Of a stretch of 34,641 nucleotides of DNA, positions 7,051 through 31,341 are shown one piece after another. The position numbers and the translations under genes were made by a program. Source of the stretch: Eubacteriales bacterium (GTDB lineage Bacteria; Bacillota; Clostridia; Oscillospirales; CAG-272); NCBI GenBank assembly GCA_045632325.1, contig JAZQWK010000188.1:1-34641 (forward strand). The letters are read 5' to 3'. The notes beneath the pieces were generated by a model. It was not told the origin of the DNA, ran no database searches, and saw only the letters and a list, made by a program, of their open reading frames with translations. The first letter of the stretch is position 1; every line of letters starts with the position of its first letter.

Positions 7051-7063
7051 TCTCTGATATCCT

Positions 7064-8311
7064 TTATTCCTGTTCGTTTCCAACCAATGCGGTCACGATA
7101 TATCCGTCAATATTGTTGCCGGAGATCTCATACGACCTTGCCGTTTTGGGGATGGGAAGCTTTTGACCGTCTTTTCCGCTCGACTTTACATAATACAAAC
7201 AATACAAATCACCGTTGTCTGCCGTAATGTAATATCGTGTTCCGTTATAACTGTAATCGCGGATAAAATTGATATATTCTTCAAGCGCAAGACCCATGTT
7301 CTTGATGGCGAGCGCATTGCCGATACCGACGTAACGGTAGTGCCACGATTCATACGAGATCTTCGTTACGTCCTCTTTGCTGGCGGAATAACGAAGGATA
7401 AAGCCGTACTGTGCACAATTCTGATCGACCCAAAAGTATTCGTTTTTACCGTCGAACGTCCACATTGCTTCATCGCCTTCAACGTCCAGATCGCCTTCAT
7501 CGTAAACGGCAAGGTCCATGGCGTATCCGGTGTGGTGCTCGCTATATCCAGGCTTCTGCACGTATTTTTCCGCATATTCTGCACCGTTTAACTGCAGCTT
7601 GCTGTCGTATACTTCCTGCTGCTGCTTCGCATTACGGAAACCGCTGTTGACCATGATGTTTCTGTTTTCCGTTTCTTCATAGAAATCATCCATCATAGCG
7701 TTCATTGCCTGGATCATCTCCATGCGCAAAAAAACACTGCCGCTTGTTACTTTATAGCTTTTCGACTTATTTTTATAAACGGAATAAACGTCTTCCTCAT
7801 CTTCAAATACATAGGGGACGTCAAAATTGACAAGGATACACGAGCCGCGATGGATATCATCCGCATTAACCGTGACGTACTTCGTCAGATATCCGTCACG
7901 CTCCTGCTCGGTGATATACGGACCGTACACAAGGTTATCGGGATTGGAAAACGGCATTCTCGTCTTGTCAGAAAAGACGTATTCCCAATCTATGCTTCTG
8001 ACGATCAACAGTGACAGCGACACGAAGATCATGACAACCAGCACAACGGCAAGTCCGGAAACTGCACCTTTGCGCCTTTTGAGTCTTCTTTTCGTTCGGT
8101 TCTGATGCGGATGATTGGTTTTTGTCACGATTTGGGAATATCGGGCAGTGTGCATTGCATTCGCATGAGAACGCGGGTCGGGATTTCCCATCTGACGAGC
8201 CGTTCCGTTTACGCGCTGTGCCCGTGTTTGATTCGCAGCAGTTCCCTGCGCTTGACGTCTTTGCTGCGCTGACGGATTCGTATTATGTTTCGCTTGATTC
8301 TGATTCTGCAT
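7064..8311 (-). CDS. Membrane-anchored M15B (VanY/LdcB-like) Zn peptidoglycan carboxypeptidase
   Basis: Basic low-complexity N-terminus, one TM helix (LAVVLVVMIFVSLSLLIV), SGFR, SEHHTGYAMD and ESWHYRYVG Zn-binding motifs. ATG 8311 has an AGGAG RBS; GTG 8344 is the alternative. Confidence 0.88.
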   Translation of the reverse strand: MQNQNQAKHNTNPSAQQRRQAQGTAANQTRAQRVNGTARQMGNPDPRSHANAMHTARYSQIVTKTNHPHQNRTKRRLKRRKGAVSGLAVVLVVMIFVSLSLLIVRSIDWEYVFSDKTRMPFSNPDNLVYGPYITEQERDGYLTKYVTVNADDIHRGSCILVNFDVPYVFEDEEDVYSVYKNKSKSYKVTSGSVFLRMEMIQAMNAMMDDFYEETENRNIMVNSGFRNAKQQQEVYDSKLQLNGAEYAEKYVQKPGYSEHHTGYAMDLAVYDEGDLDVEGDEAMWTFDGKNEYFWVDQNCAQYGFILRYSASKEDVTKISYESWHYRYVGIGNALAIKNMGLALEEYINFIRDYSYNGTRYYITADNGDLYCLYYVKSSGKDGQKLPIPKTARSYEISGNNIDGYIVTALVGNEQE

Positions 8312-8369
8312 GGGTTTCTCCTGTTTATTTGGATCGGAGATCACTTTTATATGAAATAATATTGATTAC

Positions 8370-8378
8370 ATTATAGCA
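8370..8378 (-). promoter_or_regulatory. Extended -10 promoter element for the M15B-mtaB-purL unit
   Basis: TGCTATAAT on the minus strand in an AT-rich intergenic region; no recognisable -35. Confidence 0.5.
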
Positions 8379-8438
8379 TATTTCAAAGCAAAAAAAAAGG
8401 TCTATTCTTTAAATTTTTATCAAAACTGAAAATTTATC

Positions 8439-8471
8439 AAAAAAAAGAGTGCCGCATATGCGACACTCTTT
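8439..8471 (-). terminator. Rho-independent terminator of the carbohydrate-uptake operon
   Basis: Minus strand AAAGAGTGTCGC-ATAT-GCGGCACTCTTT running into a T8 tract, about 10 nt after the last permease stop codon. Confidence 0.88.
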
Positions 8472-8480
8472 GTGTTTTGA

Positions 8481-9530
8481 TTAACCGACGATACCGGATC
8501 TTTCGATACCCTGTACCAGGAATCTCTGACCGAAGAGGTAAACGACGATCAGGGGAGCCATAACCAGCAGACCGCAGGTATTTCTGATAGCGGAGATATA
8601 CAGGTCACCTGCCGCAAAGTCTGTATCGAGAGACTTGGGCGTCATGATGATATCGGGCATCAGCTTCATACCGGAGCTGGTGAAGAATACGGTGGTATAG
8701 AAGTCATCGGTCCACTGCCAGCAGAAGCCGAACAGGAAGATGGTAACCATCATCGGGACAGACAGCGGAATGATGATTCTGAAGAACGTCATGAACGTAC
8801 CGCAGCCGTCGAGATAAGCGGATTCTTCGAGTTCGTCCGGGACACCGCGATAGAACTGTCTCATCATGAAGATGTACAGACCGTTTCTGTAAGCCAGACC
8901 GGTGATGGAAAGCAGTGCCAAAGGCCAGTAGGAGTTGTTGAGGTTAATGGAAGTGAACGGGATCAGCTCAAGGCTTTCGGTTAAGCCGCCGCCCAGAAGG
9001 TTGAATACGCCGAGGATATCGAAGTATCTGAACTTCATGAACATGGACAGCTGCAGCGTCTGGTGCGGGATGACCATCGTCAGGACGACCAGTAAGAACA
9101 GGAGCATGGAGCCCTTGAACTTGAACTTTGCAAAACCGTAACCAATGAGAGAGCAGATAAAGGTCTGGGTAACACCGCAGAACAGAGAGAGTGCCAGCGT
9201 GTTGATAAACGCGGTACCGTACTTGGATTCAGCGATGATTGCCTTATACGTATCCAGCGTGGGGTACTTGGGAATGTACTTGACCGTAACGTCAATGAAG
9301 TCTTCCGGGCTCATGAAAGAACCGGTGATCTTAGAGAAGAACGGCATCAGAACGACGTAAGCAAGACCAAGCAGGATGATAAAGCGGAAGATCCACCATA
9401 CAACGGAGACGACAAAGTTTCCGGAAAGATACTTGATACGCATTCTTTCCTTCTTGGAGGTACGTTCGAAGTCTACTCTGATGGAATTTTTGGTTTCTTT
9501 TGTTACCTTAGGTGCATTTTGAGCATTCAT
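8481..9530 (-). CDS. Carbohydrate ABC transporter permease (MalG-like), second pair
   Basis: Multiple TM segments; GYGFAKFKF; EAA loop ELEESAYLDGCG..TFFRIIIPL. Confidence 0.92.
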   Translation of the reverse strand: MNAQNAPKVTKETKNSIRVDFERTSKKERMRIKYLSGNFVVSVVWWIFRFIILLGLAYVVLMPFFSKITGSFMSPEDFIDVTVKYIPKYPTLDTYKAIIAESKYGTAFINTLALSLFCGVTQTFICSLIGYGFAKFKFKGSMLLFLLVVLTMVIPHQTLQLSMFMKFRYFDILGVFNLLGGGLTESLELIPFTSINLNNSYWPLALLSITGLAYRNGLYIFMMRQFYRGVPDELEESAYLDGCGTFMTFFRIIIPLSVPMMVTIFLFGFCWQWTDDFYTTVFFTSSGMKLMPDIIMTPKSLDTDFAAGDLYISAIRNTCGLLVMAPLIVVYLFGQRFLVQGIERSGIVG

Positions 9531-9548
9531 CTTATGTTCCTCCTTTCT

Positions 9549-10532
9549 TTATCTTTCCTGACGCTGATAGAAGGTGTACGCAGAGAGGACACCCGCAACA
9601 GCGGCGATGATGAGCATAACGAGAATGAAGTACATCCAGGACATTGCGGAAGACAGAACGTTACCGCTGGGCTGGTCGTAGACCTGATCGATGTAGGTCA
9701 TAACCTGGTTGTCTGCGGATGTAAAGGAGTCGATAACCGTGTAGACAGTGTTAACGAGGATCATCGGGGAGATCATCGGAAGCGTAATCTTCCAGAAGGT
9801 TTCCCAAGTGGTCGCACCGTCGATCTGGCAGGACTCGTAAATTGCGGGGGAGATGGACTGCAGTGCAGAGAGGAAGATCAGCATCTGGACACCGGAGCGG
9901 TTAACGATATCATAGATATCGTTAACGAGTCCGACGACGTAGTTAAGCAGTTCTTCACCGATGACCATGTTACGGAACAGCTTCTGGACGTCCATCGCAG
10001 AAATAATCTGCGCAGACTGTTCAGCGCCGCCGTCACCCATGTCCATGGAAGAGGTGTTTTCCATGTACTGGAGCATCTGGTTCTGCTGGTCGATCTTATC
10101 GATAAGACCGGTAGACAGAATAACCGGGATAAAGAAGATCGCACGGAATGCTGCACGACCAACCATCTTTTCGTTCATCATGACAGCCATGAAGAGCGAG
10201 AAGATAACGATTGCGGGGATATCAAAGATCAGCTGCTGGATACCTGCAGTCAGCGTCTGAACGAACGTAGCATCGACGAACAGTGCTTCCTGGTAGTTAT
10301 CAAGACCGACCCATGTCAGACGGAAACCACCGCCGGTGACAATGTTGATTTTCGTAAAGGAGTACAGGATGGAATCGTAAACGATCGGAGCGTAAATAAT
10401 TACAAAGCCGATAATGAACGGAAGTACAAAGAGCCAACCTGCTCTGGATTTACGAGCGTCAAGAGAAGAGGCTTTTTTCTTCTTTTTCGGTGCTGCATTG
10501 ATTTTCTGCGGCGCCTGTTGAACGTTATTCAT
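9549..10532 (-). CDS. Carbohydrate ABC transporter permease (MalF-like), second pair
   Basis: GWLFVLPFIIGF, VGLDNY, FRAIFFIPVIL, EAA loop IYESCQIDGATTWETFWKITLP. Confidence 0.92.
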   Translation of the reverse strand: MNNVQQAPQKINAAPKKKKKASSLDARKSRAGWLFVLPFIIGFVIIYAPIVYDSILYSFTKINIVTGGGFRLTWVGLDNYQEALFVDATFVQTLTAGIQQLIFDIPAIVIFSLFMAVMMNEKMVGRAAFRAIFFIPVILSTGLIDKIDQQNQMLQYMENTSSMDMGDGGAEQSAQIISAMDVQKLFRNMVIGEELLNYVVGLVNDIYDIVNRSGVQMLIFLSALQSISPAIYESCQIDGATTWETFWKITLPMISPMILVNTVYTVIDSFTSADNQVMTYIDQVYDQPSGNVLSSAMSWMYFILVMLIIAAVAGVLSAYTFYQRQER

Positions 10533-10550
10533 TCATTACACCTCTCATTC

Positions 10551-13500
10551 TTAGTTGATTCTGATAAAGCTGAGTGCCTCAACCGTAACGGTCGGGTCAT
10601 CAGTCGTATCATCTTCGGTTCCGTTATCGCCCGTGGCAACGGTTACAGGGAAGTTATTGTAGTTGAGGTAGAATACGGTGCCGCCTTCGTATTCAACGCG
10701 GACGGTCTTACCGTTATCAACAAGCGTTCTGGACGCGATGTCGATAACTTCTTCTTCCTTAACTTCATCGAGTTCTTCTTCTTCCTCGGTTTCTTCGCCT
10801 TCAGTTGCTTCTTCTTCAACTTCACCTTCTGCTGCTTCGCCTTCAGCCTTATCTTCGGGCTTTGCGAATGCATCAGCTGCTGCCTGCTTTTCCTTTTCGA
10901 GTTCTGCAAGGCGTTCTTCCTCGAGTCTCTTTTCCTCGAGTTCAGCCTTCAGGACTTCGATTTCGGCTTCGAGTTCAGCAAGTTCTTCTGCATTGAGGAC
11001 GCGGTGAGCCTGAACGAATTCGTGACCGACGATCAGCTTGGTCTGCAGATCTGCGATTGCATCGTTGAGCTTGTTGTAAGCTGCAACAAGGTCTTCAAAC
11101 CAAATATCAAAGTCGATGGAGTAGTACTTGGAGAAGTCACCGTTGGTCTTGAGCTTTTCGGTGTTCTGATAGGAAAGCTGGAAGTACATACCTGCACCGT
11201 TTTCGATTGCCTTCAGGATCTGATAGTTCATATCACCGGCGTTGTTCATTGCCATACCGGCAAAGTTGACGTAGCCGTGGAGAACCATACCCATGAACGG
11301 AATCGTTTCGGAGGTGTTAAGGTATTCAGAAGAGTCAAGCGGAACGTTGAGGATGTGGTTGACGTAAGGCAGGGAGTAATAGTTACCTGCATCGGTCATG
11401 ACATCGCCGTATTCTTCCTTGATTCTTGCGAGGAGTTCGACGGTGTAATCCTTGTTGTCTTCGCGGTTGTACGGATCCTTCTTATCGAAGTCGGAGTTGA
11501 GGTACTCACCGAGCGTAGAAACAGAGATACCGGTCGGGTTGAGAGCCTTGAAGTTCTCGGTAAAGGTGTCATAGAAGTGTTCGAAGTATGCGGGAGTGAT
11601 TGCGAGCATGTAGGATCTCATGTACTGCTGGTACAGCGGATCGTACTCTCTCATGTTTGCATACTTGGTGTTCATCGTCTTGATGAGGTGCTGACGTCTG
11701 TTCAGACCATCGAAGACGGTGTTTTCAGCTGCGTCTGCCCAGACGAAGTCAAAGTCCGGATAAACGCCGATGCCCTTGGAGGATGCATAAGACAGGAAGT
11801 CCTGATAACCTTCTGCACCGCCAACGTTCTTTTCAACTTCTACGTTGTAGGGGAGGGTTGCCCAAAGACCGCCGTTAAAGAAACCGGTCAGTCTGTAGTT
11901 GATGTTTTCAATACCTTCGGCATTGAGCTGTTCGGTCATTGCCTTGAGGTCTTCAAACGTGGTAAGAGGAGTCTGAACTTCTACGGGGAAGGAGAGGATC
12001 TTTTCCTGGGTCGTAGCAGTACCGAACGCTTCGATGTACAGCGGAATGTCTTCCTGTACGTCGTCCTTGGTCAGTCTGGTGAGGATGCCCTTTTCTTCCA
12101 TGTAGTCACGGCAAGCGTTGACCATGCCCATGTAGCTGGTATCATAGTAAGAAGCGTTGCCGACGTCAATGTTGTTTTCTTCAGCATACTTCATGGAGTT
12201 GAGCATGGTGAAGCGGAGAGTGTAGTTACCGGTGTACTTACGCTTGGAGGTAACCGTCCACATTGCGGAGCCTGCGCCGCTGATCGCGTCAGCAATATCG
12301 TAGGTATCGCGCTGTCTGGGCGTAATGGTGGTCTTTACGTTGTCGTAGTTACAAGTACGACCGCCGGTTTCGGTAGAAATGCTTGCGAGAGCTTCGCCTT
12401 CTTCAATGATTGCGAAGAAGCCTCTGTCCTCATATGCGTAGGTCTTCTTAACTTCACGCTTCATTTCGTAATCGATGTAGTTACCGAAGATATCGTAGTA
12501 AGGATCAACGGGCGTGTTTACGATTTCCTGCGTGACGTTTGCGTAATTTTCGATGATACCGTAAACAGGAAGTCTAACGGATTCCTGATGTTCACCGGAA
12601 ATTTCATAGAATGCGTAGTCCTGACCGTAAACCTTACCGGTGACAGTCTTACCGGAGAGAGCCGCAAAGTCTTCAAAGCGGACGATCGTACCGGAACCGT
12701 CGGGAAGGAGCAGGTAACCGTCAAAGTTGTAGGAACCGCATCCGAAATAGGGGAGAATTTCAATGGAGGTCAGCTGATAAGCTGTGTCGTCAAAACGGAG
12801 ACCGTTGACGGGGAATCTGACGCGGAGAGTTCCGTCTTCCAGATAGTATTCCAGAGCCATCTTGAAGAGTGCGGGTGCCGTATTGGTACCTTCGTACTCC
12901 GTCATTTCATGGTCCTTGTCGAGTTCATCGTAGGTATACAGCGGGCAGTTTTCGAGGATGTAGCTTTCGATGAGGTTGAGTTCTCGGTCGGTAGCGTACG
13001 GGTCGAAGACGTAAACCGCCATCTTCTGCGTGATCGGGAAGGTTGCCATCATTTCCTTGACACCGCGGTCCGTCAGAGAAGGATCGTCGGGGTCCTTAAG
13101 GGAGTAGAATGCGTTCATCTTCTTGAGCGCGAATTCGTTACCCTGAAGGTTAGCAAGAATCTGTTCTTCGAAACGGGACTTTTCGATCTGTCTCGGAACC
13201 AGCTTACGAGTTTCTTCACGACCGATGGAGTATTCCACACGGACACCGTTCTTGATGTTCTTGACCTTGATCTGTTCTCTTTCTGCAGCTTCTTCAAAGC
13301 TGTAGTAGGTAGATTCCTTATCGTTGTCAAGATACTTGACGATGACCTGGGACAGCAGCTTGTTCTTAGTATCTTCAGAGGAAGTCTTGGATACGTCGTT
13401 GATGTTGTAGGGGTTGGAGAAAAGGGACTGCTGGAAAACATTGTCGCGGTACGCAATTTCTCCGGAGTACTTATCAACGTAGATAGAGTATCTGCCGTCT

Positions 13501-13694
13501 GCAGAGGTGACCATTTCGGTCATCGTAGCCAGCTTTTCTTCTGCAGTCTTGAAAACTTCCTGCAGATAATTGATGGTACTGGTTTCTTCAGCCTCTTCTT
13601 CCTTTGCGTCTGCCGCAGCAACGGGCAGAACGGTGAAGGTGCTGATGAGCATCAGGAATGCCAGAATTCCGGAAAGTAATCTGAATTTTTTCAT
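10551..13694 (-). CDS. Large secreted DUF5696-like protein with a putative glycoside-hydrolase-like TIM barrel
   Basis: Sec signal peptide. ILPYFG, GYLLLPDGSG, RLPVYGI, PLTTF, GFFNGG, GIGVYPDFDF, IPFMGMVLHG resemble the DUF5696 family as recalled, and the operon context is typical. Acidic coiled-coil insert near the C-terminus. Confidence 0.75.
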   Translation of the reverse strand: MKKFRLLSGILAFLMLISTFTVLPVAAADAKEEEAEETSTINYLQEVFKTAEEKLATMTEMVTSADGRYSIYVDKYSGEIAYRDNVFQQSLFSNPYNINDVSKTSSEDTKNKLLSQVIVKYLDNDKESTYYSFEEAAEREQIKVKNIKNGVRVEYSIGREETRKLVPRQIEKSRFEEQILANLQGNEFALKKMNAFYSLKDPDDPSLTDRGVKEMMATFPITQKMAVYVFDPYATDRELNLIESYILENCPLYTYDELDKDHEMTEYEGTNTAPALFKMALEYYLEDGTLRVRFPVNGLRFDDTAYQLTSIEILPYFGCGSYNFDGYLLLPDGSGTIVRFEDFAALSGKTVTGKVYGQDYAFYEISGEHQESVRLPVYGIIENYANVTQEIVNTPVDPYYDIFGNYIDYEMKREVKKTYAYEDRGFFAIIEEGEALASISTETGGRTCNYDNVKTTITPRQRDTYDIADAISGAGSAMWTVTSKRKYTGNYTLRFTMLNSMKYAEENNIDVGNASYYDTSYMGMVNACRDYMEEKGILTRLTKDDVQEDIPLYIEAFGTATTQEKILSFPVEVQTPLTTFEDLKAMTEQLNAEGIENINYRLTGFFNGGLWATLPYNVEVEKNVGGAEGYQDFLSYASSKGIGVYPDFDFVWADAAENTVFDGLNRRQHLIKTMNTKYANMREYDPLYQQYMRSYMLAITPAYFEHFYDTFTENFKALNPTGISVSTLGEYLNSDFDKKDPYNREDNKDYTVELLARIKEEYGDVMTDAGNYYSLPYVNHILNVPLDSSEYLNTSETIPFMGMVLHGYVNFAGMAMNNAGDMNYQILKAIENGAGMYFQLSYQNTEKLKTNGDFSKYYSIDFDIWFEDLVAAYNKLNDAIADLQTKLIVGHEFVQAHRVLNAEELAELEAEIEVLKAELEEKRLEEERLAELEKEKQAAADAFAKPEDKAEGEAAEGEVEEEATEGEETEEEEELDEVKEEEVIDIASRTLVDNGKTVRVEYEGGTVFYLNYNNFPVTVATGDNGTEDDTTDDPTVTVEALSFIRIN

Positions 13695-13713
13695 TATTTA
13701 GCTCCTTTCCGAA

Positions 13714-15852
13714 TTAAATACGGTACGAAATTTCGATGACGATTGCGGTAACGAAAGACACGATGTTGTTAGCAAGACCGGAGAAGAGGACTGCGACGAA
13801 CATGATGAACGCCATACCGACGATCGTGCATACGCACATGATGAGGTTCTTACCGAAGGTATAGTCGTGAGTGACCATGGAACCGAACACGATCAGCAGA
13901 CCGACCCAGATGAAGGAGAAGGTCAGGAGCAGGTTCAGGATGGAAACTTCAGCAAGCGTCAGGAAGTGCGTGCAAATGGTAACGGGGAACATGAACAGCG
14001 GGATCGGAACGAGTGCATAACCGGTCGCGATGAAGATATCCTTGAAGGAGCCTTCGCCGTCGAACAGGGTGGTCAGACACCAGTTAGCGGATGCCCACAG
14101 CATGAACGGAACCATAATGGAGGTAATGGTTGCGAGGATGTTCATGTAAGAGTTGTAGGGATTGACGAGGTAGGAAGAACCGACAGACTTGTAAGTAAAT
14201 GCCAGGATCGTCATGCCGATGTAGAAGAACGCACCGCGAACGGAACCGCGCTTTTCGTGCTTCAGATCCCAGAAACCGTCGAACGGATGGAAGATTACCC
14301 AGAAGCCGTACATGATTTCTTCCCAGAAGGTACGCTTACCAACCTTGGTGTGACCCTTGACGTTGATAATGCCTGCGTACTTGAAGAAGAGGGAGTAGCC
14401 AACGATTGCAACGACGATAACAACGATTACAACCAGGACATACTTCTTGACCCATTCCTGACGCCACATAGCAAACGCTGCGGAGTAGTTCTCGGTATCG
14501 TACGCGGACTTGTAGTAATCCATTGCTTCTTCGTATTCACCGGATCTGTAAAGAGCCTTACCGATACCGATGTATGCTTCGTCGAAGTTGGAGTTTCTCT
14601 GGAGGATGTTTGTCCAGTCTTCCTGAGAAAGGTCATACTGTCTTTCTCTGTTGTGCTGGATAGCAGTCAGCAGAAGGTCGCCGTATTCGGTTCTCTTGTA
14701 AACCGTGATGTTGTTCGCGGTCTTGTCGAGAACGAGAATGTCGTTACCCTTGTAAGCAACTGCCTGGATGGAGGAAAGGTTACCGGTCTGCATACCGGAG
14801 TCGCCGAAGATGAACAGGAGCTTACCTTCTTCGTCGTAGGTGTAGATCTTCTGTCTCTTTTCGTCGATGATGGACCAAGTACCCTGCGGGCCGAGTGCAA
14901 CGTCGATGATCTTGGACGGACCGCCGATATCGTTGTTGGACGCGCCTGTGTTCATGACGGAAACTTCACCGCCGGGAGCGAAGAAGCCGTTTCTCTTCAG
15001 AATGTCGGAACCTGCGGTGTTCAGCTTCTTAACGGGAGCGTTACCTGCATCCTTGGAGCGGATAGCAGCCTGCTGAGCAGCTTCGTCGATAGAAGAGGTG
15101 GTGACGTAGATGAAGCCATCTTCGTCAATGGTGATGTTGTTAAATTCGGTGGAGACGTACTGGGTGGAGGTTTCACGCTGTTCCTTGGTCTGAATCTTTC
15201 TCCACAGAATATCGATTGCGGAGATGTTGACCTGCTGAGCACCGATAAAGCCCTGGAATTCTCCGTCGGGAGCGATGGAGATGACACCCATGTAGGTGGT
15301 GGAAGAAACGATGTACATTCTGCCCGCAGCGTCTACTGCCAGCGCAACCGGCTTGTAGATGGAGTTTTCCGGGAAGACGTCAGATCTCGGTTCTTCGATG
15401 GTATCGACGTATTCGCCTTCGAGGTCGAACAGAACGATACGGTTGTTATCGGTATCTGCAACGTAGATGTACTCATCGGTAACGAACACACCCTGCGGGT
15501 TCTTCAGGCTGTCCGGAACACCCTGATTGTTCGTGAATTCCTTGATTTCAAACGTATACTGAATGTAACGGTTGCAGACGATGATTCTGTTGTTGGTTGC
15601 ATCCGCGATGTAGATCTTGTTGTTCTTGTCAACGAAAAGGTCACGGGGAGAGTCCATCGGAAGAGCTTCGTCAAGACCCATTGCTGCGGAGTCAACAATC
15701 ATATCAGGAGTATAAGCGTCGGGGGATGCTGCGTACATACCATCGATATCGTAGGTGTAGGTGGAGTACGGCGTGATTGCCATAACGGACAGGGAGCCGA
15801 ACACCATCAGACAAACCATAACGAGGGTAATCAGTCTTAAAATATTCTTCAT
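13714..15852 (-). CDS. NHL-repeat beta-propeller + TPR-like + Yip1-like multi-pass membrane protein
   Basis: Signal peptide; NHL repeats (PRDLFVD..IYIADATNNRI, PQGVFVT..IYVADTDNNRI, PVALAVD.AGRMYI); TPR-like AYIGIGKALYRSGEYEEAMDYY; TM helix; HPFDGFWDLK followed by about five TM segments. Confidence 0.85.
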   Translation of the reverse strand: MKNILRLITLVMVCLMVFGSLSVMAITPYSTYTYDIDGMYAASPDAYTPDMIVDSAAMGLDEALPMDSPRDLFVDKNNKIYIADATNNRIIVCNRYIQYTFEIKEFTNNQGVPDSLKNPQGVFVTDEYIYVADTDNNRIVLFDLEGEYVDTIEEPRSDVFPENSIYKPVALAVDAAGRMYIVSSTTYMGVISIAPDGEFQGFIGAQQVNISAIDILWRKIQTKEQRETSTQYVSTEFNNITIDEDGFIYVTTSSIDEAAQQAAIRSKDAGNAPVKKLNTAGSDILKRNGFFAPGGEVSVMNTGASNNDIGGPSKIIDVALGPQGTWSIIDEKRQKIYTYDEEGKLLFIFGDSGMQTGNLSSIQAVAYKGNDILVLDKTANNITVYKRTEYGDLLLTAIQHNRERQYDLSQEDWTNILQRNSNFDEAYIGIGKALYRSGEYEEAMDYYKSAYDTENYSAAFAMWRQEWVKKYVLVVIVVIVVAIVGYSLFFKYAGIINVKGHTKVGKRTFWEEIMYGFWVIFHPFDGFWDLKHEKRGSVRGAFFYIGMTILAFTYKSVGSSYLVNPYNSYMNILATITSIMVPFMLWASANWCLTTLFDGEGSFKDIFIATGYALVPIPLFMFPVTICTHFLTLAEVSILNLLLTFSFIWVGLLIVFGSMVTHDYTFGKNLIMCVCTIVGMAFIMFVAVLFSGLANNIVSFVTAIVIEISYRI

Positions 15853-15869
15853 GTTTTACCCTCCTTGGA

Positions 15870-16745
15870 TTAGTCTTTCATACCGGAAGATCCCATGGTT
15901 TCGATGATGTTGGACTGCGTGATGACGAAGACCGTGATCGGGACGATCATCATGATGACCGTAGAAGCGGCACCGGCACCTGCACGGACAATACCACCGG
16001 CAAGGATCTGGCTGATAGCGTAGTTGAACGTCTTGAGTTCCTCAGAATAGATGTAAATAGAAGTACCGGAGTTCCACAGACCCTGGAAGGAGTAAACGAT
16101 CAGGGTCAGCCACGCGGGCTTAACCATCGGCATTGCGATCGTTAAGAAGGTTCTGAATTCACTTGCACCGTCAAGACGGGAGGATTCGAGGACCGCGTCG
16201 GAGACAGAGGATTCCATGAACTGCTTCATGAGGTACAGACCCAGCGTAGAAGCGAAGGTCGGGATGATGATTGCGAGGTAGGTGTCAACCCAACCGAGAG
16301 CGGTCATAACGATGAAGTTACAGATACCGGTAACGGTGGAGTTGAACATCAGGGAGAGGACGATCGTCTGGAAGAAGAATTCACGTCCGGGGAACTTGAT
16401 CTTCGCGAGCGAGTAAGCTGCGAGAGAGGAGAGGATCAGGTTACCGGTTGTACCGACAACAGAGATCATAACGGTGTTGAAGATATAACGGGAGAACGGG
16501 ACCCAGGAGGTGCTCATCAGTCGGAAGAGGTCACCGAAGTTCTTCAGCGTCGGGTTGACAACGTAGAATCTCGGCGGGAAGATCCAAAGCTCATCAAGGG
16601 GCTTCAGCGCCTGCATGATCGCGTAGACCATGGGGAGGAACATGAATGCACCGAGGAGGACGAGCATGACCGTAATACCGGCGTCACCACCGGCGGAACG
16701 GTTGAGGACAACTTTATGATTTCTTGATCTTAACTTCTTGCTCAT
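15870..16745 (-). CDS. Carbohydrate ABC transporter permease (MalG-like), first pair
   Basis: ALKPLDEL, AAYSLAKIKFPG, EAA loop VLESSRLDGASEFRTFLTIAMP. Confidence 0.92.
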   Translation of the reverse strand: MSKKLRSRNHKVVLNRSAGGDAGITVMLVLLGAFMFLPMVYAIMQALKPLDELWIFPPRFYVVNPTLKNFGDLFRLMSTSWVPFSRYIFNTVMISVVGTTGNLILSSLAAYSLAKIKFPGREFFFQTIVLSLMFNSTVTGICNFIVMTALGWVDTYLAIIIPTFASTLGLYLMKQFMESSVSDAVLESSRLDGASEFRTFLTIAMPMVKPAWLTLIVYSFQGLWNSGTSIYIYSEELKTFNYAISQILAGGIVRAGAGAASTVIMMIVPITVFVITQSNIIETMGSSGMKD

Positions 16746-16746
16746 A

Positions 16747-17709
16747 TTACTGTCCCACCTTCGAAAGCAATTTCTTGATAAGGGCGTTAGCGCCGACCAT
16801 CATGAAGAACAGAATGGTAGCGATTGCGGAGGAGTAACCGACCTCAAAACGCTGTCCACCGTAGTCTTCCAGGTGGTGCATGATCGTATGTGCGGCATAG
16901 TCGACAGACGGGAAGCCGCAAAGTGCGGTAACGATACCACCGAAACCGAAGGAGCCGGTGATTGCCATGACAGCACCGAACATCAGCTGGGGCTTCATGA
17001 CAGGCAGGGTGATGTACCAAAGTTCCTGCCATCTGTTCTTGATACCGTCAACGGCAGCTGCTTCGTAAAGGCTCTTATCAACGGTCTGAAGACCTGCGAT
17101 AAAGGAAAGGAATGCAGTACCGAGGGAGGTCCAAAGTGCAACGACGATACACAGAGGCATAACGTAATCTGCATTCTGGAAGAACTGGATCGGTTCAGCG
17201 ATGAAGCCAAGCTGCATCAGCCAACCGTTGACCCAACCGTATGCGTCACCGGAGAACAGGGTTGCCCAAATGGTGTAAACCTGACCGGAGATGGACGGTG
17301 CGTAGAAGACCAGCGTGACGATTGCACGGATCTTCGGAGGAAGCTCGTTGATGAACCATGCAACGAGGAACGAAAGCAGGTACGAAACCGGACCTGTGAT
17401 CGCTGCAAAGATGAACGTATTCTTAACTGCGAGCAGGAAGATATCGTCATCGAGGAACAGGCGGATGTAGTTGTCAAGGAAGACAAATACCGGAGGTTCC
17501 AGCATGTTAAATGTCGTGAAGCTGAGGACAATCGACAGGACAACGGGCAGAATCGTAAAGGTAAGGAAGAGAATGTAGAACGGCGCCAGCATGACGTAAC
17601 CGATGTAGTTTCTCTTCATTTCCTTAATCGTCCATTGAGCCATCGTCATGTCCTTACGCGATACCGGCTTTTTGGATTCAGGGGTAGCAGCCGCGGTATT
17701 CTGAGACAT
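16747..17709 (-). CDS. Carbohydrate ABC transporter permease (MalF-like), first pair
   Basis: TM segments; FYAPSISG; EAA loop LYEAAAVDGIKNRWQELWYITLP. ATG 17709 follows TAAGGAG. Confidence 0.92.
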   Translation of the reverse strand: MSQNTAAATPESKKPVSRKDMTMAQWTIKEMKRNYIGYVMLAPFYILFLTFTILPVVLSIVLSFTTFNMLEPPVFVFLDNYIRLFLDDDIFLLAVKNTFIFAAITGPVSYLLSFLVAWFINELPPKIRAIVTLVFYAPSISGQVYTIWATLFSGDAYGWVNGWLMQLGFIAEPIQFFQNADYVMPLCIVVALWTSLGTAFLSFIAGLQTVDKSLYEAAAVDGIKNRWQELWYITLPVMKPQLMFGAVMAITGSFGFGGIVTALCGFPSVDYAAHTIMHHLEDYGGQRFEVGYSSAIATILFFMMVGANALIKKLLSKVGQ

Positions 17710-17777
17710 GTGATTCACTCCTTATTTTTCAGATTTTTGAAAACGAATTTGTTTGCACAATTGCTGATTGGAAGAAC

Positions 17778-20700
17778 TTATTCTGCTTCACCGGTTTCAG
17801 CGGCAGCTGCTTCTTCTGCTCTGCTTGCAAGAGTCTCACCGAGTTCAAGAACGTCGAGACCGAATTCCTGTCTCTTTCTGGTGATTTCCTTGTTGATGAA
17901 GATGTACTGAGAAAGCATTGCTTCAACGGGGTCAGCGTTGTTGTTGTACGCATCCAGGAATGCGAAGTCAACGTAACGGGTGATGATGTAAGAACCGGGA
18001 TACTCGGGCGTAGCTCTGAGCTTATTGAACTGTGCCATGAGCGTTTCGAGCTCGGTGGAGGACCAGTTCATGTTCATCATAGCTTCCATGTTCGCGGTCG
18101 GGTGAATCGTACCGTTACCGAGAAGTGCCGTGTATTCGTTACCGTATCTGGACTGTGCATCGGTAGAGGTGATCCAGTCGATGTACTTCCAAGCGTTTTC
18201 GGGGTTCTTTGCAGCAGCCATCATAACGAGACCGGAAACGGTGGTCGTTGCGGTGTTGTTGATGGAGCCGTCTTCCAGTTCATAACCGGGCAGCGGCATC
18301 ATAGCCCACAGACCTCTGATTTCGGTTGCGAATGCGTTCAGCTGCGTGTACATGGTGTAGTCAGCGATACCGAGCGGCATTTCACCGGTTCTGAAACGGT
18401 TAGCAAAGTCGTAAGTCAGCGGGAACTTGTACTGCGTGAACATGTCACAGAGTTCCTTGAAGGTATCAAGTGCGAGGTTGGAGTCGAGGTTGATTCTCAT
18501 ACCGCCGTCTGCATACAGCTCACCGTCTCTCTGATAGTAGAGAAGCGTGAAGCCTGCGAGCTTCTGGGGCATTGCGATTTCCATGTACTCAGACTGGAGA
18601 ACGGGGAGGATCGCCTTGAGGTCATCCCAAGTCTTGGGAACTTCGATTTCGAGGTCAGCGAAGATATCCTGACGGTAGAAGAGCATCGAGAAGGACTGGG
18701 TTTCCGGGATCGCGTAGACACCGGCAGCTGCGCCTTCGTCTTCTTCGGTTGCAGGGTTATCGGTGACGTCCAGGGTGAACGGAACGATTGCTTCTTCGGA
18801 GAATCTTGCGCAGACTTCGTCGAAGGTATCGAAGCCGTCGAGCTTCTGGATCGCGTTACGGATTGCGTAGTTGACAGGGTCGGAGCCGCCCATGTATGCG
18901 ATGTCGGGACCGTTGCCTGCGAGCGTTGCAGGAAGAAGCGTACCGCCTGCGACGAGCTTCAGTTCAACCGGAACACCGTACTGAGGAGTGAACATATCGT
19001 TGATCATCTGACGGACGATCTGAGACTGGTCACGACCGGTGGTAACCCAAACGGAGATGGATTCGCCTTCGCCGCCTTCTTCAGAACCGAGGGAGTTGTA
19101 GTCGGTAAAGAAGGATGCAACGAACTGGGACATTTCAAACATGAATGCCTGGAACGCATTTGCATTTGCCTTGGGCAGGGGTGCGTCGGGAGACTGTACG
19201 GAGAAGAAGTCTACCTGCAGCGGCTGCTTACGAGCGGTGTTCATCCAGGTACCGAGGGTACCGATGTTGGACTTGAACTTGGAAAGGTTCTTTGCAATTT
19301 CGTCTTCGTCGCGGCCCATACGGTCTGCGATACGAGCGATTTCGTTCAGGGTTGCACAGTTGGAACCGCGCTCGCCGGTGATTGCTTCCAGCTCTGCGGA
19401 GAACTCGTACAGGTTCTTGGATTCCTTGATGAGCATATTCAGTTCATCGGGAATCAGTTCGATGAAGTTGTAGTCACGGTACTGGTCAGGCGTTGCACCG
19501 GTGATCTGCTTGATCTTGAGGTAGATCTGGTTCAGGTTGACCAGAGATGCTTCAATTCTGGAGATCAGGGTTGCCATGTTACCGAGAACGACTTCAAAGC
19601 GGAGGGTGTATTCCTTGCCTGCTTCAAAGTAGAACTGGAATTCCGTGGTACCGTCGTTGAGCGGCTTGATCTGGAATTCGTCGTCGTATGCGAATTCAAG
19701 GCTGCCTGCTTCTGCGAACGGGAGCTCGCCGTTGATGTACAGCTTTCTGGAAACGAACATGTCAGGCTGTTCAGACTGCTGGAAACGCGGTACGATGTAG
19801 TACAGACCGGTTTCATTGACTGTCAGCGTGTATTCGACCCAGTCACCGACGGACTGCCATGTCGTGGTCTTACCGATCGTATTCAGACGGATTTTGGAAG
19901 CGTCCTGCGGTTCGGAAATCGCAGAGGATCTGTCATAAGTCGGATATACGGTCGATGTGGATGTTCTAACCGGGGTTTCAGCCTGGATCTTTACGGTCGC
20001 GTCACTACTCACGGCCTTATAGCCCTTGGATGCGTACTCGGCAGAAACCTCTTCATAAGATTTCGGTGCGTCGTAAGGCTTCAGCGTAATGCTGCCGATG
20101 GCAACGGATTCTCTCGTTGCTTCGAGCTCGAGAGTATGCGTACCTGCGGTCAGATAATACTGGAACGGTTCGTTGTAATAACCTGTTGCATCCTTGAATT
20201 CATAAGTCGCCCAATCAGGAGCTTCGATCGCCATGGGACGAACGTCGTTGCCCAGCGGGTCCTGCTCGAACGCTGTATCGGATTCACCGATATCGGACAG
20301 GTCGTCTTTCCAGATCTTCGTCATGGACAGGTATCTGGATTCCTTAAAGGGGATTTTTCCGTCAATACGGAGTGCACGTTCAATGTTGGATGCCTTGCCT
20401 GCGATCGGATAGTAATCCATCTCGATCATGTAAAGGCCATCCGAGGGAACGTCAACATTGTACACGACAGTACCGAGTTCAGGCGTATAGAGCGCCTTCT
20501 CTCCGCCGTAGGTATCAACGCTGACTTTTGCGTCGGTCTTTTCAGTGTCGTAATCGGTGCCGGCAATGGTAATTGCATTCTTGCCGAGCGCTTTTCCTTC
20601 GTGCGATACCTTGTATTCGGCATAGGTGGTCGCGTTCAGAAGTTCCATTACTTCGCTGATGCTTTGGCCGACATTCGATGAATCATTGCCGCTGCCTTTG

Positions 20701-20798
20701 TCCGTTTCCGCTGCTGCGGCCGTGACAGTAAATGTGCTCACGAGCATGAGACCCGAAAGCAACAAAGCAATCGGCTTTGTCAACTTGAGATTTTTCAT
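17778..20798 (-). CDS. Giant (1006 aa) extracellular solute-binding protein: two N-terminal CBM-like beta-sandwich modules, helical linker, C-terminal family-1 sugar SBP
   Basis: Sec signal peptide ending in AAA with no lipobox. Two repeats of V.Y.V.V...GLY.I...Y/F....R.L.I.G..PF.E. C-terminal GPDIA, YAIPETQ, LFYRQDI, VPKTWDD, AWKYIDW motifs of sugar SBPs. AGGAGG RBS. Confidence 0.9.
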   Translation of the reverse strand: MKNLKLTKPIALLLSGLMLVSTFTVTAAAAETDKGSGNDSSNVGQSISEVMELLNATTYAEYKVSHEGKALGKNAITIAGTDYDTEKTDAKVSVDTYGGEKALYTPELGTVVYNVDVPSDGLYMIEMDYYPIAGKASNIERALRIDGKIPFKESRYLSMTKIWKDDLSDIGESDTAFEQDPLGNDVRPMAIEAPDWATYEFKDATGYYNEPFQYYLTAGTHTLELEATRESVAIGSITLKPYDAPKSYEEVSAEYASKGYKAVSSDATVKIQAETPVRTSTSTVYPTYDRSSAISEPQDASKIRLNTIGKTTTWQSVGDWVEYTLTVNETGLYYIVPRFQQSEQPDMFVSRKLYINGELPFAEAGSLEFAYDDEFQIKPLNDGTTEFQFYFEAGKEYTLRFEVVLGNMATLISRIEASLVNLNQIYLKIKQITGATPDQYRDYNFIELIPDELNMLIKESKNLYEFSAELEAITGERGSNCATLNEIARIADRMGRDEDEIAKNLSKFKSNIGTLGTWMNTARKQPLQVDFFSVQSPDAPLPKANANAFQAFMFEMSQFVASFFTDYNSLGSEEGGEGESISVWVTTGRDQSQIVRQMINDMFTPQYGVPVELKLVAGGTLLPATLAGNGPDIAYMGGSDPVNYAIRNAIQKLDGFDTFDEVCARFSEEAIVPFTLDVTDNPATEEDEGAAAGVYAIPETQSFSMLFYRQDIFADLEIEVPKTWDDLKAILPVLQSEYMEIAMPQKLAGFTLLYYQRDGELYADGGMRINLDSNLALDTFKELCDMFTQYKFPLTYDFANRFRTGEMPLGIADYTMYTQLNAFATEIRGLWAMMPLPGYELEDGSINNTATTTVSGLVMMAAAKNPENAWKYIDWITSTDAQSRYGNEYTALLGNGTIHPTANMEAMMNMNWSSTELETLMAQFNKLRATPEYPGSYIITRYVDFAFLDAYNNNADPVEAMLSQYIFINKEITRKRQEFGLDVLELGETLASRAEEAAAAETGEAE

Positions 20799-20863
20799 TT
20801 ACATCTCTTCCTCCTACCAAGATTTGTTTGCTGTTGTGTAGTGACACTTTGGCTGAAACAACA

Positions 20864-20951
20864 CGTCCGCCGTATTCCGCGTGTCCGCCTTCCGTCTATC
20901 TGCGCATTTGCGTGCACATATATAAGGAAAGAAACAGCGGAAACGAGGACG
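20864..20951 (-). ncRNA. Putative structured cis-regulatory RNA (long bulged hairpin) in the operon leader
   Basis: Manual fold of the mRNA strand gives seven helices totalling 36 bp. All six non-Watson-Crick pairs are G-U on this strand only. No known family recognised. Confidence 0.6.
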
Positions 20952-21026
20952 AATGGCTGACATACAAAAATCAAAGGCAACTTGCCGGACATGGTAACGG
21001 CATAAGCCCTGAATTTTCATAGAATA

Positions 21027-21055
21027 ATGATACCATAAACAGCGTTTCTTGTCAA
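21027..21055 (-). promoter_or_regulatory. Putative sigmaA promoter of the uptake operon
   Basis: TTGACA (21055-21050), 17-bp spacer, TGg-TATCAT (hexamer 21032-21027); predicted +1 near 21020. Confidence 0.75.
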
Positions 21056-21190
21056 GTCTGCGTTTTTGTCATTAAATCGTAAAAATTTCTTCAGAATTCG
21101 TTTTCATATGGCTAACGGACACCTCGACGCGAGAAATCGCCGTTTTTTCTATTTATTAGAATTAAATTAATTTGTTTCTTTTTATTGATT

Positions 21191-21207
21191 TGTTATTGAT
21201 AATAACA
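21191..21207. promoter_or_regulatory. Palindrome, candidate transcription-factor site
   Basis: TGTTATT-GAT-AATAACA: perfect 7-bp arms in the AT-rich region upstream of the operon promoter. Confidence 0.35.
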
Positions 21208-21457
21208 TTTTAAAGCCTATTTACACGCTTTATACAGACTTTCTTTGAATGAAAATGAAATTATGCCAATTTACGTTACAATCAATTACCATCCACCGGG
21301 TGCCGTCGCATCGGTTTTATTGTTTGTTTTACAAATCATAGTATGCTATTTGCACAAAATCGACCCTTAATTTTCTATGTGTCAGCATTTTGCACAAACT
21401 TTTGCTTTTTTGCCTTTTTCATGGTACTGAAAGCGCGTTTCACTTCATTTTTCGGTT

Positions 21458-22519
21458 TCAGCCCACGATTCTGCCGCCAAACAGCACGTCTCCCATACCG
21501 TCCGTATCATAGAAAACCGCGCTCTGTCCCGGCGTGATGGCACGCTGCGGCGCATCGAACTGCACCGTCATCCGATCTCCGTCGATTTCAGTGACGACCG
21601 CGCTTGCCGGCGGTGCCGCGTAACGGATCTTGACCCGAACCGTCATCCCGACAACGGCGTCCTCGGGCGCAAGCTTCTGATAATTCAGCGCCTCGACGGT
21701 AAACGCGCCGCCGTATTCCATACCGGCAGGAGCCAGATGCACGGTATTGTTGTCCGCATCGATCTTCGTGACAAATACGGGATGCCCGAGTGCAATGCCA
21801 AGTCCCTTTCTCTGTCCGACCGTATAGCGAATAATGCCCTCGTGCCGTCCGACCACGCGTCCCATCTCATCAAGGAAATCTCCGGGCGGAAACGGCTTGC
21901 CAAGCATCTGCTCCACGAACGAAACGTATCCGCCGTTTGGCAGAAAACAGATATCCTGGCTTTCCTTGGATGCAGCAGCAGAAAAGCCGAGCTCTGCCGC
22001 GTGTGCACGGACTTCCGTTTTATCAAGCTCTGCCATCGGAAGCTCAAGCATCGCAAGCATCCACTGCGGCAGCTGCCACAGAACGTAGCTCTGATCTTTT
22101 TTCTTATCCTCCGCCGCACGGACGAAATACCGTCCGCGCTCCTCATCCTGCAAAACGCGCGCATAATGCCCGGTGCTGACGCGCGCAATGCCGTTCTGAC
22201 GCGCATACTCGCAAAGCATTGCAACCTTGACGTACCGATTGCACTCCACGCACGGGTTCGGCGTCTGCCCCATAGCATAAGCATTGGCAAAATACTGCTT
22301 GACGTGATGCGCAAACGCATCCCTTGCATCGATGATCTCAAGCGGGATCCCTACCTGGTCTGCCGCCGTCTGTGCTGCCGCAACGTCCGTCTCATCCGAC
22401 ATGCGCAAAACGGCACCGTATACACGGTATCCCTGCGCCTTGTACCGATAAGCCGCGTACGTGCTGTCAAGCCCGCCGCTCATACCGACGAGAATTGACG
22501 GTATCTTCTGATTTTCCAT
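21458..22519 (-). CDS. mnmA: tRNA U34 2-thiouridylase MnmA
   Basis: PP-loop MSGGLDS, PNPCVECN, TGHYAR, KDQSYVL, ESQDICF, YTVGQRKGLG, TPGQSAVFY. Confidence 0.96.
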   Translation of the reverse strand: MENQKIPSILVGMSGGLDSTYAAYRYKAQGYRVYGAVLRMSDETDVAAAQTAADQVGIPLEIIDARDAFAHHVKQYFANAYAMGQTPNPCVECNRYVKVAMLCEYARQNGIARVSTGHYARVLQDEERGRYFVRAAEDKKKDQSYVLWQLPQWMLAMLELPMAELDKTEVRAHAAELGFSAAASKESQDICFLPNGGYVSFVEQMLGKPFPPGDFLDEMGRVVGRHEGIIRYTVGQRKGLGIALGHPVFVTKIDADNNTVHLAPAGMEYGGAFTVEALNYQKLAPEDAVVGMTVRVKIRYAAPPASAVVTEIDGDRMTVQFDAPQRAITPGQSAVFYDTDGMGDVLFGGRIVG

Positions 22520-22537
22520 TTTTCGTCCCCTCTCCTT

Positions 22538-30302: not shown

Positions 30303-30325
30303 CACGGAAAGAAAGGAATCCGACC

Positions 30326-31318: not shown

Positions 31319-31341
31319 ACCTTATCAGAAAGGACAACACT

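Follow-up and report, generated by a model that had tools for sequence, protein, structure and literature searches.

In Gram-positive bacteria of the gut and rumen, sugar importers of the ATP-binding cassette (ABC) type are usually read as a solute-binding protein (SBP), two permeases and a shared ATPase. How, then, should one read a locus in which a single SBP gene is accompanied by two permease pairs and by two genes for proteins of other kinds? Such a locus lies in the 34,641-nucleotide contig JAZQWK010000188.1 (C188 among the contigs of its genome; the whole stretch is called the window here), which belongs to a metagenome-assembled genome (MAG) of an uncultured cattle-gut Eubacteriales bacterium of the CAG-272 lineage in the Clostridia (3.1 Mb, 449 contigs, 89% complete). 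We propose, with a probability of about one half for the proposal as a whole, that its seven genes form one transcription unit and encode a twin CUT1 oligosaccharide importer that includes three accessories at the surface or in the membrane, the ATPase being encoded elsewhere.

Seven co-oriented open reading frames (ORFs) lie on the minus strand between positions 8481 and 20798, and a Pfam search assigned them to families. In operon order they encode the SBP, a MalF-type and a MalG-type permease (F1 and G1), a membrane protein with NHL, TPR and Yip1 parts, a DUF5696 protein, and a second permease pair (F2 and G2). The successive intergenic gaps measure 59, 1, 17, 19, 18 and 18 nucleotides (nt), and a Shine-Dalgarno-like motif is clear ahead of six of the seven genes and weak ahead of F1, whose start is presumed to be GTG. 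An earlier note on this DNA, made by a model from the letters alone, had described seven tightly spaced co-oriented genes here, which the ORF positions and the Pfam assignments bear out. It had also claimed that the unit contains no ATPase, regulator or recognizable classical hydrolase; searches with Pfam and curated models agree, as none of the seven proteins matched an ATPase, a regulator or a classical glycoside hydrolase family.

The gene set is well conserved. Loci of about 20 kb around a DUF5696 match were taken from 40 genomes of the same order and, elsewhere in the class, from 20 genomes that belong to other orders, and their ORFs were searched with the window proteins or with profiles built from them. 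All seven genes stand in the window order in 54 of 61 loci; six loci are cut by contig ends and one has no G1 at its place. Within the same order (L004 included) 37 of 41 loci are complete, and the remaining four, each cut by a contig end, show the expected sub-series. The other orders contribute 17 complete loci out of 20, two that are cut, and L117, where G1 is missing between F1 and the NHL-Yip1 gene and a G1-like ORF lies beyond G2 (L117:13360-14304 and 4662-5534). The two permease pairs and the two accessory genes are together in all 54 uncut, complete loci, and the genes flanking the unit vary from genus to genus. Of 36 genomes of the family, 35 had a DUF5696 match, as did 13 of the 24 other families in the order and, at E <= 1e-20, 79 genomes in a sample of 300 from the class. 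The earlier note had mentioned similar clusters in other Bacillota; in the loci compared here the genes clearly co-occur in a fixed order. As to the window DNA itself, a MAG of a Eubacteriales bacterium is 76% identical to it over the start of the DUF5696 gene, and cattle-gut metagenomes hold near-identical DNA, with RNA libraries making up 10 of the 22 sequencing runs listed, from three studies.

The NHL-TPR-Yip1 protein combines an ectodomain with a membrane part. Its Yip1 match (PF04893) covers residues 519 to 687 and model positions 3 to 172 of 173, with 51 bits against a cut-off of 28.6; the NHL match reaches 39.8 bits against a cut-off of 20, and weaker SGL, SBBP and TPR matches fall in the same protein. 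A profile of the protein aligned NHL propellers with residues ~54 to 204 (PknD sensor 1rwi, E 2.4e-17) and TPR with residues 399 to 455, and several of its stretches matched solved NHL propellers, namely TRIM71, PknD and the designed “Pizza” proteins. Hydrophobic segments occupy residues 8 to 26 and parts of 472 to 688. The NHL-TPR and Yip1 parts form one protein in the window and two adjacent ORFs in 7 of the 41 loci of the same order and 12 of the 20 loci of other orders, a fused-or-split pattern which suggests that the two parts work together. When the Yip1 part alone was compared with 1.84 billion cluster representatives, 1066 matched at E <= 1e-10; among the best 150 of these, 98 are proteins of at least 665 residues with a C-terminal match and 17 are free-standing, with 201 to 226 residues.

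Complex prediction supports docking of Yip1 on the second permease pair. Yip1 residues 470 to 712 were modeled with F2 plus G2, each as a 25-row alignment, in three runs. The median score was 0.64, compared with 0.01 for the best of three controls; the mark used for this score is reached by 116 of 157 solved complexes and by 2 of 215 mismatched pairs. At least 89% of the contacts agreed among the runs, and the partner had a pLDDT of at least 73. In the predicted contact, the last Yip1 helices (677-711) pack on residues 48-59 and 82-88 of G2 and on residues 106-114, 180-206 (in an insertion described below) and 243-251 of F2. None of the 60 PDB matches listed for the NHL-TPR-Yip1 profile covers the Yip1 part, and it is therefore unlikely that the score passed through memory of a solved complex. 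The earlier note had proposed that all products form one surface complex; the part of that proposal that has passed a controlled prediction is this one membrane contact, and that contact only. Conservation of the interface was rejected as support for being too slight (24 to 29% of contact residues are conserved compared with 16 to 23% overall, counted by hand). In the Yip1 part as modeled (positions 13714-14445), the polar residues H522, P523, R535, N590, W591 and T595 are invariant in 25 of 25 orthologues, as are G599, G601, E635, H662 and E707; a passive anchor would not require so many. Most of these residues fall outside the predicted F2/G2 contact.

There is a partial parallel in Bacillus subtilis, where the Yip1-family protein YknW is reported to modulate the assembly of another ABC transporter, YknWXYZ (PMC4887032). 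YknW and the Yip1 part in the window are both bacterial membrane proteins of the Yip1 family, and YknW assists an ABC transporter as the Yip1 part is proposed to do. However, YknWXYZ belongs to the MacB-type exporters and includes a membrane fusion protein, whereas the predicted partner in the window is a type I importer, and the likeness is that of a shared Pfam family. The window Yip1 domain, unlike YknW, also carries a propeller-TPR ectodomain.

The other accessory, the DUF5696 protein, is a whole-length structural relative of GH129 glycosidases according to its predicted model. Its match to PF18952 scores 451.1 bits against a cut-off of 25.6 and is split by an insertion. The protein consists of an N-terminal hydrophobic helix, a GH129-like three-domain body and a coiled-coil insertion at residues 902 to 990, and its hydropathy indicates that it is exported or anchored. 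The model (pLDDT 84.2) matched 5opq in Foldseek at E 2.4e-25. Over the model range 58-1047, structural comparison gave Z 31.2 with 5opq (root mean square deviation [rmsd] 4.1 Å, 586 residues aligned) and Z 29.9 with 5wzn (rmsd 4.5 Å, 574 residues aligned); GH101, GH36 and amylases score about 10 Z units lower. The three domains of the GH129 fold, an N-terminal beta-sandwich, a (beta/alpha)8 barrel and a C-terminal beta domain, are all found in the model. The structures in question are those of the alpha-N-acetylgalactosaminidase NagBb (5WZN) and of the 3,6-anhydro-D-galactosidase ZgGH129 (5OPQ, 8RZK), and homology to GH129 enzymes is also detectable by sequence: a profile of 31 DUF5696 orthologues finds NagBb at E 2.2e-5, and hhalign relates that profile to eight PF11308 proteins from genomes of the class with a probability of 98.1% (E 8.8e-14). 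The window protein differs from the GH129 enzymes in that PF11308, the sequence model of GH129, does not match it even at E <= 10, in its exported or anchored topology, in its coiled-coil insertion, and in being tied to a transporter operon.

It also differs at the positions of the catalytic residues. An alignment of one PF11308 protein with 5wzn served to place the GH129 catalytic pair. It located the nucleophile at the Asp in “...LD...” after strand 4 and the acid/base at the Glu in “GTE”; we take these to be Asp435 and Glu478 of NagBb. Both residues are well kept in the PF11308 proteins, each in seven of the eight. The hhalign alignment maps the nucleophile to Ser726 and the acid/base to Asp768 of the window protein. 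Of the 31 orthologues, 1 has an acidic residue in the nucleophile column and 14 have one in the acid/base column. In a wider set of 51 DUF5696 proteins, the nucleophile column is acidic in 8, with an Asp in the next column in 7, and the acid/base column is acidic in 20. As far as these alignments go, the canonical GH129 pair is not conserved, least of all in the clade of the window protein, and the claim of the earlier note that the unit cleaves its glycan is not supported. Ten polar positions, in turn, are kept across the 51 proteins: N817 in all 51, R744, Y773, E831 and H891 in 49, R529 in 48, D332 in 47, D359 in 46, N771 in 43 and D735 in 42 (plus 7 with Asn). These conserved positions make it likely that the protein keeps a working pocket, as predicted from the aligned sequences.

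The third accessory feature is built into the SBP, in which SBP_bac_1 accounts for only a C-terminal portion. In the model of the protein (pLDDT 84.7), a helix at residues 4 to 22 and a disordered linker are followed by two beta-sandwiches (76-240 and 269-404), a helical bundle (408-523) and the binding domain (528-1000). The N-terminal helix is hydrophobic and signal-like, and no Cys follows it, so the SBP is not a lipoprotein. The second sandwich region weakly matched the CBM35 region of a solved enzyme, 5x7g (E 8e-7, profile positions 311 to 409), and weak matches to Golvesin_C and CBM_35 were found in 11 and 4 of 32 orthologues, respectively. In a fold search with the binding domain, oligosaccharide SBPs of the CUT1 family ranked first (TM-score to targets 0.71 to 0.80). 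By profile search its best solved sequence relative is Lin1841 (5ysb, E 8.2e-30), a beta-1,2-glucooligosaccharide-binding protein of Listeria innocua. Lin1841 shares the fold of the binding domain, but with about 400 residues it lacks the 520-residue N-terminal extension of the window SBP, and the similarity is too low for its ligand to be transferred. These relatives would thus set the class of the ligand, an oligosaccharide, rather than its identity.

The permeases themselves are of familiar types. All four score at or above the Pfam cut-off for BPD_transp_1, and EAA-type loops are visible in all translations. The second pair is enlarged on its outer face: F2 has an outward-facing insertion of ~65 residues (~146-212) between its third and fourth hydrophobic segments, and the outward loops of G2 are lengthened. 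Two MalK-type ATPase genes lie elsewhere in the source genome. One of them, on contig C445, encodes an MsmX-type ATPase (ABC_tran plus OB_MalK) and is an orphan, located between PGA_cap and Tex genes. With no ATPase gene in the operon, this gene content supports the suggestion of the earlier note that the ATPase is borrowed, and the C445 protein is a candidate for that role. In its MalF/MalG-type permeases, EAA loops and family-1 SBP, the system resembles CUT1 importers (TC 3.A.1.1; MalEFGK2 and those of B. subtilis and Streptococcus pneumoniae), and with those that share MsmX or MsmK it would have in common that the ATPase is encoded elsewhere. In contrast with the usual CUT1 layout, there is one SBP for two permease pairs, the SBP has 1006 residues with CBM-like modules and no lipobox, an NHL-TPR-Yip1 protein and a DUF5696 protein are constant additions, and the second pair has enlarged outward loops.

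The signals around the genes are compatible with a single transcription unit. Both the promoter and the terminator that the earlier note had placed at the ends of the unit were found, the former kept within the genus and the latter strong. The -35 element, the end of the spacer and the extended -10 element of the promoter are identical in all four same-genus loci while the surrounding DNA diverges. A promoter scan of the window returned 9 promoter-like sites compared with a mean of 15 in shuffled sequences, fewer than expected by chance, so that the scan alone proves nothing. The GTCACTACA motif, at ~20830-20845 on the minus strand and just upstream of the ribosome-binding site of the SBP gene, is likewise identical in the four loci, and the neighboring leader varies; the leader, including GTCACTACA, had no match to a riboswitch or other RNA family in Rfam at E <= 1. 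The terminator folds with -23.5 kcal/mol (z -8.13), and none of 200 shuffles folded as well. A CcpA-type cre site at 21093-21107, upstream of the promoter, was rejected as evidence, not being kept in two of three same-genus loci; the pattern has 3 matches in the window where 0.8 are expected, and 5 of 100 shuffles reach 3.

Contigs from four cattle-gut RNA-library runs of three studies were aligned with positions 7000 to 22600 of the window. They cover ~8.5 to 20.9 kb and span the junctions G2/F2, NHL-Yip1/G1, G1/F1 and F1/SBP, and one of them (X19 record 8) extends to 20936, which is 138 nt upstream of the SBP start. The unit is thus present in gut RNA libraries. Transcript ends were not derived from the RNA depth, which is zero or near zero outside 8.0 to 21.1 kb in the four runs, as an uncovered part is no finding. 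Long antisense frames run along the plus strand at 9519-13679 (1386 residues), 13867-15840 (657), 16738-17910 (390) and 18102-20681 (859). None of the four had a Pfam match, and a reading of the operon on the wrong strand was rejected; they look like mirror frames that arise from codon usage in the real genes.

Parts of this picture are already in print: the layout has been annotated and transcript-profiled in Caldicellulosiruptor (Anaerocellum) bescii, the sole printed form of it that we found and the only version with expression and genetic data. According to that paper (PMC8579813), the operon xloEFG-X-GH129-axoFGE (Athe_0174-0181) opens the xylan degradation locus; Athe_0177 is given there as an NHL repeat protein, and Athe_0178 is annotated as a putative, extracellular GH129 protein. 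Like the window, it has an SBP, two permeases, an NHL protein, a GH129-like protein and two further permeases, and no ATPase gene in the operon; a shared MsmK drives the transporters, and deletion of msmK impairs growth on oligo- and polysaccharides. This version answers to xylan and cellulose, Athe_0177 and Athe_0178 being induced with log2 values of ~4 on xylan and ~3 on Avicel. Its authors interpret the operon as a pair of CUT1 transporters, XloEFG and AxoFGE, with one SBP apiece, and assign no role to the NHL and GH129 genes (PMC8579813).

The C. bescii unit differs from the window in what follows the second pair, namely a second SBP (AxoE) and then xylanase genes in the former, and a terminator and then VanY after G2 in the latter. 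The earlier note had supposed that the DUF5696 protein occupies the place of a second SBP. This does not fit C. bescii, which keeps the GH129-like gene beside a second SBP, so DUF5696 is a constant part of the module rather than a positional stand-in. As the note had anticipated, our literature search found no mechanistic description, nor any relevant published work on a Yip1/SBP/ABC/GH combination or on an NHL-repeat/ABC/xylan/Ruminococcaceae module. Its comparison with Sus systems and polysaccharide utilization loci (PULs) holds as an idea about function only. Sus-like PULs of Bacteroidota encode surface capture, processing and import together, and the same idea is proposed here by analogy, but they differ in envelope, transporter class and energy source, and Pfam found neither a SusC-type TonB-dependent transporter nor a SusD-type lipoprotein among the seven proteins, which match only SBP_bac_1, BPD_transp_1, Yip1, DUF5696 and propeller or TPR families.

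The path of the substrate through such an importer we infer at every step. The giant SBP, anchored by its N-terminal helix, would catch the glycan with two CBM35-like modules and bind an oligosaccharide in its MalE-like domain. Judging from the family, F1/G1 would form one type I importer channel and F2/G2 another, and both would be powered by the orphan MsmX/MsmK-type ATPase, whose gene lies on a different contig. Yip1 is predicted to pack on transmembrane segment 1 of G2, transmembrane segment 2 of F2 and the outward insertion of F2, and this docking would place the propeller and TPR part above the second channel. The DUF5696 protein, a surface-exposed sister of GH129 with a putative pocket made up of the ten conserved positions, would be a station that binds glycan or processes it in a noncanonical way and passes the product to the second channel. 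We lean slightly toward such a station rather than a classical retaining hydrolase.

Several observations weigh against the proposed twin importer. Most RNA-library contigs are only 90 to 95% identical to the window, and most therefore derive from relatives; they cannot show a single transcript. The mark for the complex score was calibrated on single-chain pairs, whereas the present prediction used our own alignments and three chains, and it covered one of the possible pairings, Yip1 with F2/G2, so that the docking may not be specific to the second pair. Around the two catalytic columns of DUF5696 the confidence of hhalign is moderate only, and 15 of the 51 proteins have an acidic residue at or next to the nucleophile-equivalent column; part of the family may thus use a classical mechanism. 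The comparison with C. bescii is one of published gene order and annotations, not of sequences. Lastly, the source genome holds 31 SBP_bac_1-like matches for 16 permease matches, and F2/G2 could use an SBP encoded elsewhere.

This surplus would suit two ordinary, independent CUT1 importers that share an operon, with the NHL-Yip1 protein acting separately as an adhesin or lectin, the DUF5696 protein as a secreted enzyme, and a distant SBP serving F2/G2. The genome is indeed rich in SBP-like ORFs of ~490 to 570 residues without a permease on the same contig, the EAA loops are normal in all four permeases, and the C. bescii authors read their unit as two transporters with an SBP each (PMC8579813). 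However, five other genomes of the family have 1 to 4 SBP_bac_1 matches each, and in G017 the giant SBP is the sole one, so that a spare SBP is not generally at hand. The pairs and accessory genes never part in the complete loci while their flanks vary freely, and Yip1 is predicted to dock on F2/G2. We find independence of the two importers fairly unlikely. A doubtful but somewhat better candidate is the version of the earlier note, in which the DUF5696 protein acts outside the cell as a glycosidase of a new family, its catalytic residues having moved, and the unit binds, cleaves and imports a polymer. It overlaps the twin-importer reading in all but the chemistry. The whole-length fold and homology of GH129, the exported or anchored topology, the ten polar positions kept in 42 to 51 of 51 proteins, acidic D332, D359, D735 and E831 among them, and the annotation of the counterpart as an extracellular GH129 by the C. 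bescii authors (PMC8579813) all speak for it. It has to contend with nucleophile and acid/base columns that are acidic in 1/31 and 14/31 orthologues, as opposed to 7/8 and 7/8 PF11308 proteins, with a Ser at the nucleophile-equivalent position of the window protein, and with a literature search that found no published work naming DUF5696 or PF18952, let alone an activity.

We regard as very improbable that the unit recovers or remodels glycans of the cell's own envelope or capsule instead of dietary ones. That it is near-universal in the family (35/36 genomes), stands among housekeeping and cell-wall genes rather than carbohydrate-active enzymes, and is followed by VanY both in the window and in four loci of the same genus would fit such a role. 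But neighbors differ between genera, and the link to VanY is therefore local; the SBP domain is closest to binding proteins for oligosaccharides of plant or microbial glucans and comes with CBM35-like modules, and the C. bescii counterpart is induced by xylan and cellulose (PMC8579813).

Table 1. Positions of the seven genes and their transcription signals in the window, and of related reading frames at other loci (L numbers).
Feature	Position	Strand	Evidence or description
SBP, 1006 aa	17778-20798	-	SBP_bac_1 on residues 595-882 only, 77.9 bits, E 1.8e-21
F1, MalF/UgpA-type permease, 323 aa	16747-17718	-	BPD_transp_1; UgpA model E 3.1e-15; ~6 hydrophobic segments
G1, MalG/UgpE-type permease, 291 aa	15870-16745	-	BPD_transp_1 E 7.7e-10; UgpE E 1.2e-20, MalG E 2.6e-15
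NHL-TPR-Yip1 membrane protein, 712 aa	13714-15852	-	Yip1 E 2e-13, NHL E 3.7e-10, weak TPR
DUF5696 protein, 1047 aa	10551-13694	-	PF18952 E 8.2e-135
F2, MalF-type permease, 327 aa	9549-10532	-	BPD_transp_1 on residues 217-326 only; UgpA match split in two
G2, MalG-type permease, 349 aa	8481-9530	-	BPD_transp_1 E 2.7e-14; GlcU, MalG, UgpE models
Sigma-70-type promoter	21027-21055	-	TTGACA, 17-nt spacer, TG-extended TATCAT; 11/12 hexamer positions plus TG
5' leader, ~220 nt	20799-21026	-	GTCACTACA motif before ribosome-binding site
Intrinsic terminator	8444-8471	-	12-bp stem, 6 G-C pairs, then U run
SBP-like ORFs, examples from the source genome	L099:6067-9023; L101:3420-7925; L090:4086-5570; L087:5246-6943		
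ORF after G2	L054:5408-6895	-	No Pfam match at E <= 1e-5
ORF after G2	L063:5202-7157	-	No Pfam match at E <= 1e-5
ORF after G2	L045:13693-17208	+	No Pfam match at E <= 1e-5

Some of the orphan SBP-like ORFs of the source genome stand in tandem, and orphans of this kind adjoin sugar-enzyme genes, including BNR sialidase-like and DHDPS/NanA-like genes, xylose-isomerase-like barrels, GH123 and GH28. One central translocon served by many orphan SBPs was considered as a family trait and rejected on the low SBP counts of the five other family genomes; it would be a genus trait at most. Downstream of the unit, 41 ORFs in 36 related loci gave no match to SBP families at E <= 1e-5, and 13 of them matched nothing; a very divergent SBP may be among these 13. 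In three related loci, a co-oriented ORF of 496 to 1172 residues directly follows G2 (Table 1), and one of these could be a very divergent additional binding protein or an enzyme. The source genome has a second, shorter DUF5696-like ORF on contig C194 (L097:4345-5751; PF18952 E 1e-15), cut by the contig end, together with a 491-residue ORF that overlaps a weak SBP_bac_1 match (E 4.1e-5) and has no match at E <= 1e-6. Relatives likewise carry DUF5696-like proteins of 570 to 650 residues outside the seven-gene unit. On contig C438 (L096, 243-9393), a sugar-type permease pair is followed by HlyD_3-like and MacB_PCD-like proteins, an 804-residue protein with a weak SBP_bac_1 match in its frame, and a Big_14 protein, in that order.

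The unit is flanked by housekeeping genes in the window, with MnmA (a tRNA thiolase) and a cysteine desulfurase on one side and VanY, a MiaB-like enzyme and PurL on the other. The neighbors were tried as a guide to the substrate and set aside: being housekeeping genes that differ between genera, they make no substrate readable. Farther away, at 29190-32133 on the plus strand and 938-1663 on the minus strand, lie a weakly GH16-like ORF (E 6.3e-5), a URO-D-like gene, a xylose-isomerase-like barrel and a ThuA-like gene. The sign of the GC skew changes at the borders of the operon. A foreign or inverted segment was rejected as the cause: at third positions the operon genes have a skew of -0.18 to -0.38, no different from most other window genes on both strands, so the flip reflects codon usage and is no sign of transfer.

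What is known, then, is the CUT1-type importer and the annotated operon of C. bescii; what is new are the constant, uncharacterized accessory proteins, proposed as subunits. A bolder possibility, which we think unlikely, is that the seven proteins and MsmX form an obligate supercomplex in which the second channel is fed by a membrane-docked, Yip1-anchored NHL propeller and a re-tooled GH129-like protein, and not by a free SBP. If true, such feeding from a docked station would be a mode of delivery not described for type I ABC importers, and the supercomplex could explain why the two channels never separate in evolution. Across the class (79/300 sampled genomes) one meets the same fixed combination of two channels, a propeller anchored by Yip1 and a GH129-like protein, and parts of the family may depend on the unit as their chief or sole CUT1 system. 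Should the accessories prove to be true subunits, they would represent a new importer architecture in which a glycosidase fold is put to a new use; the operon of C. bescii would then be a genetically tractable model, and the annotation of such operons in fiber-degrading bacteria would change.

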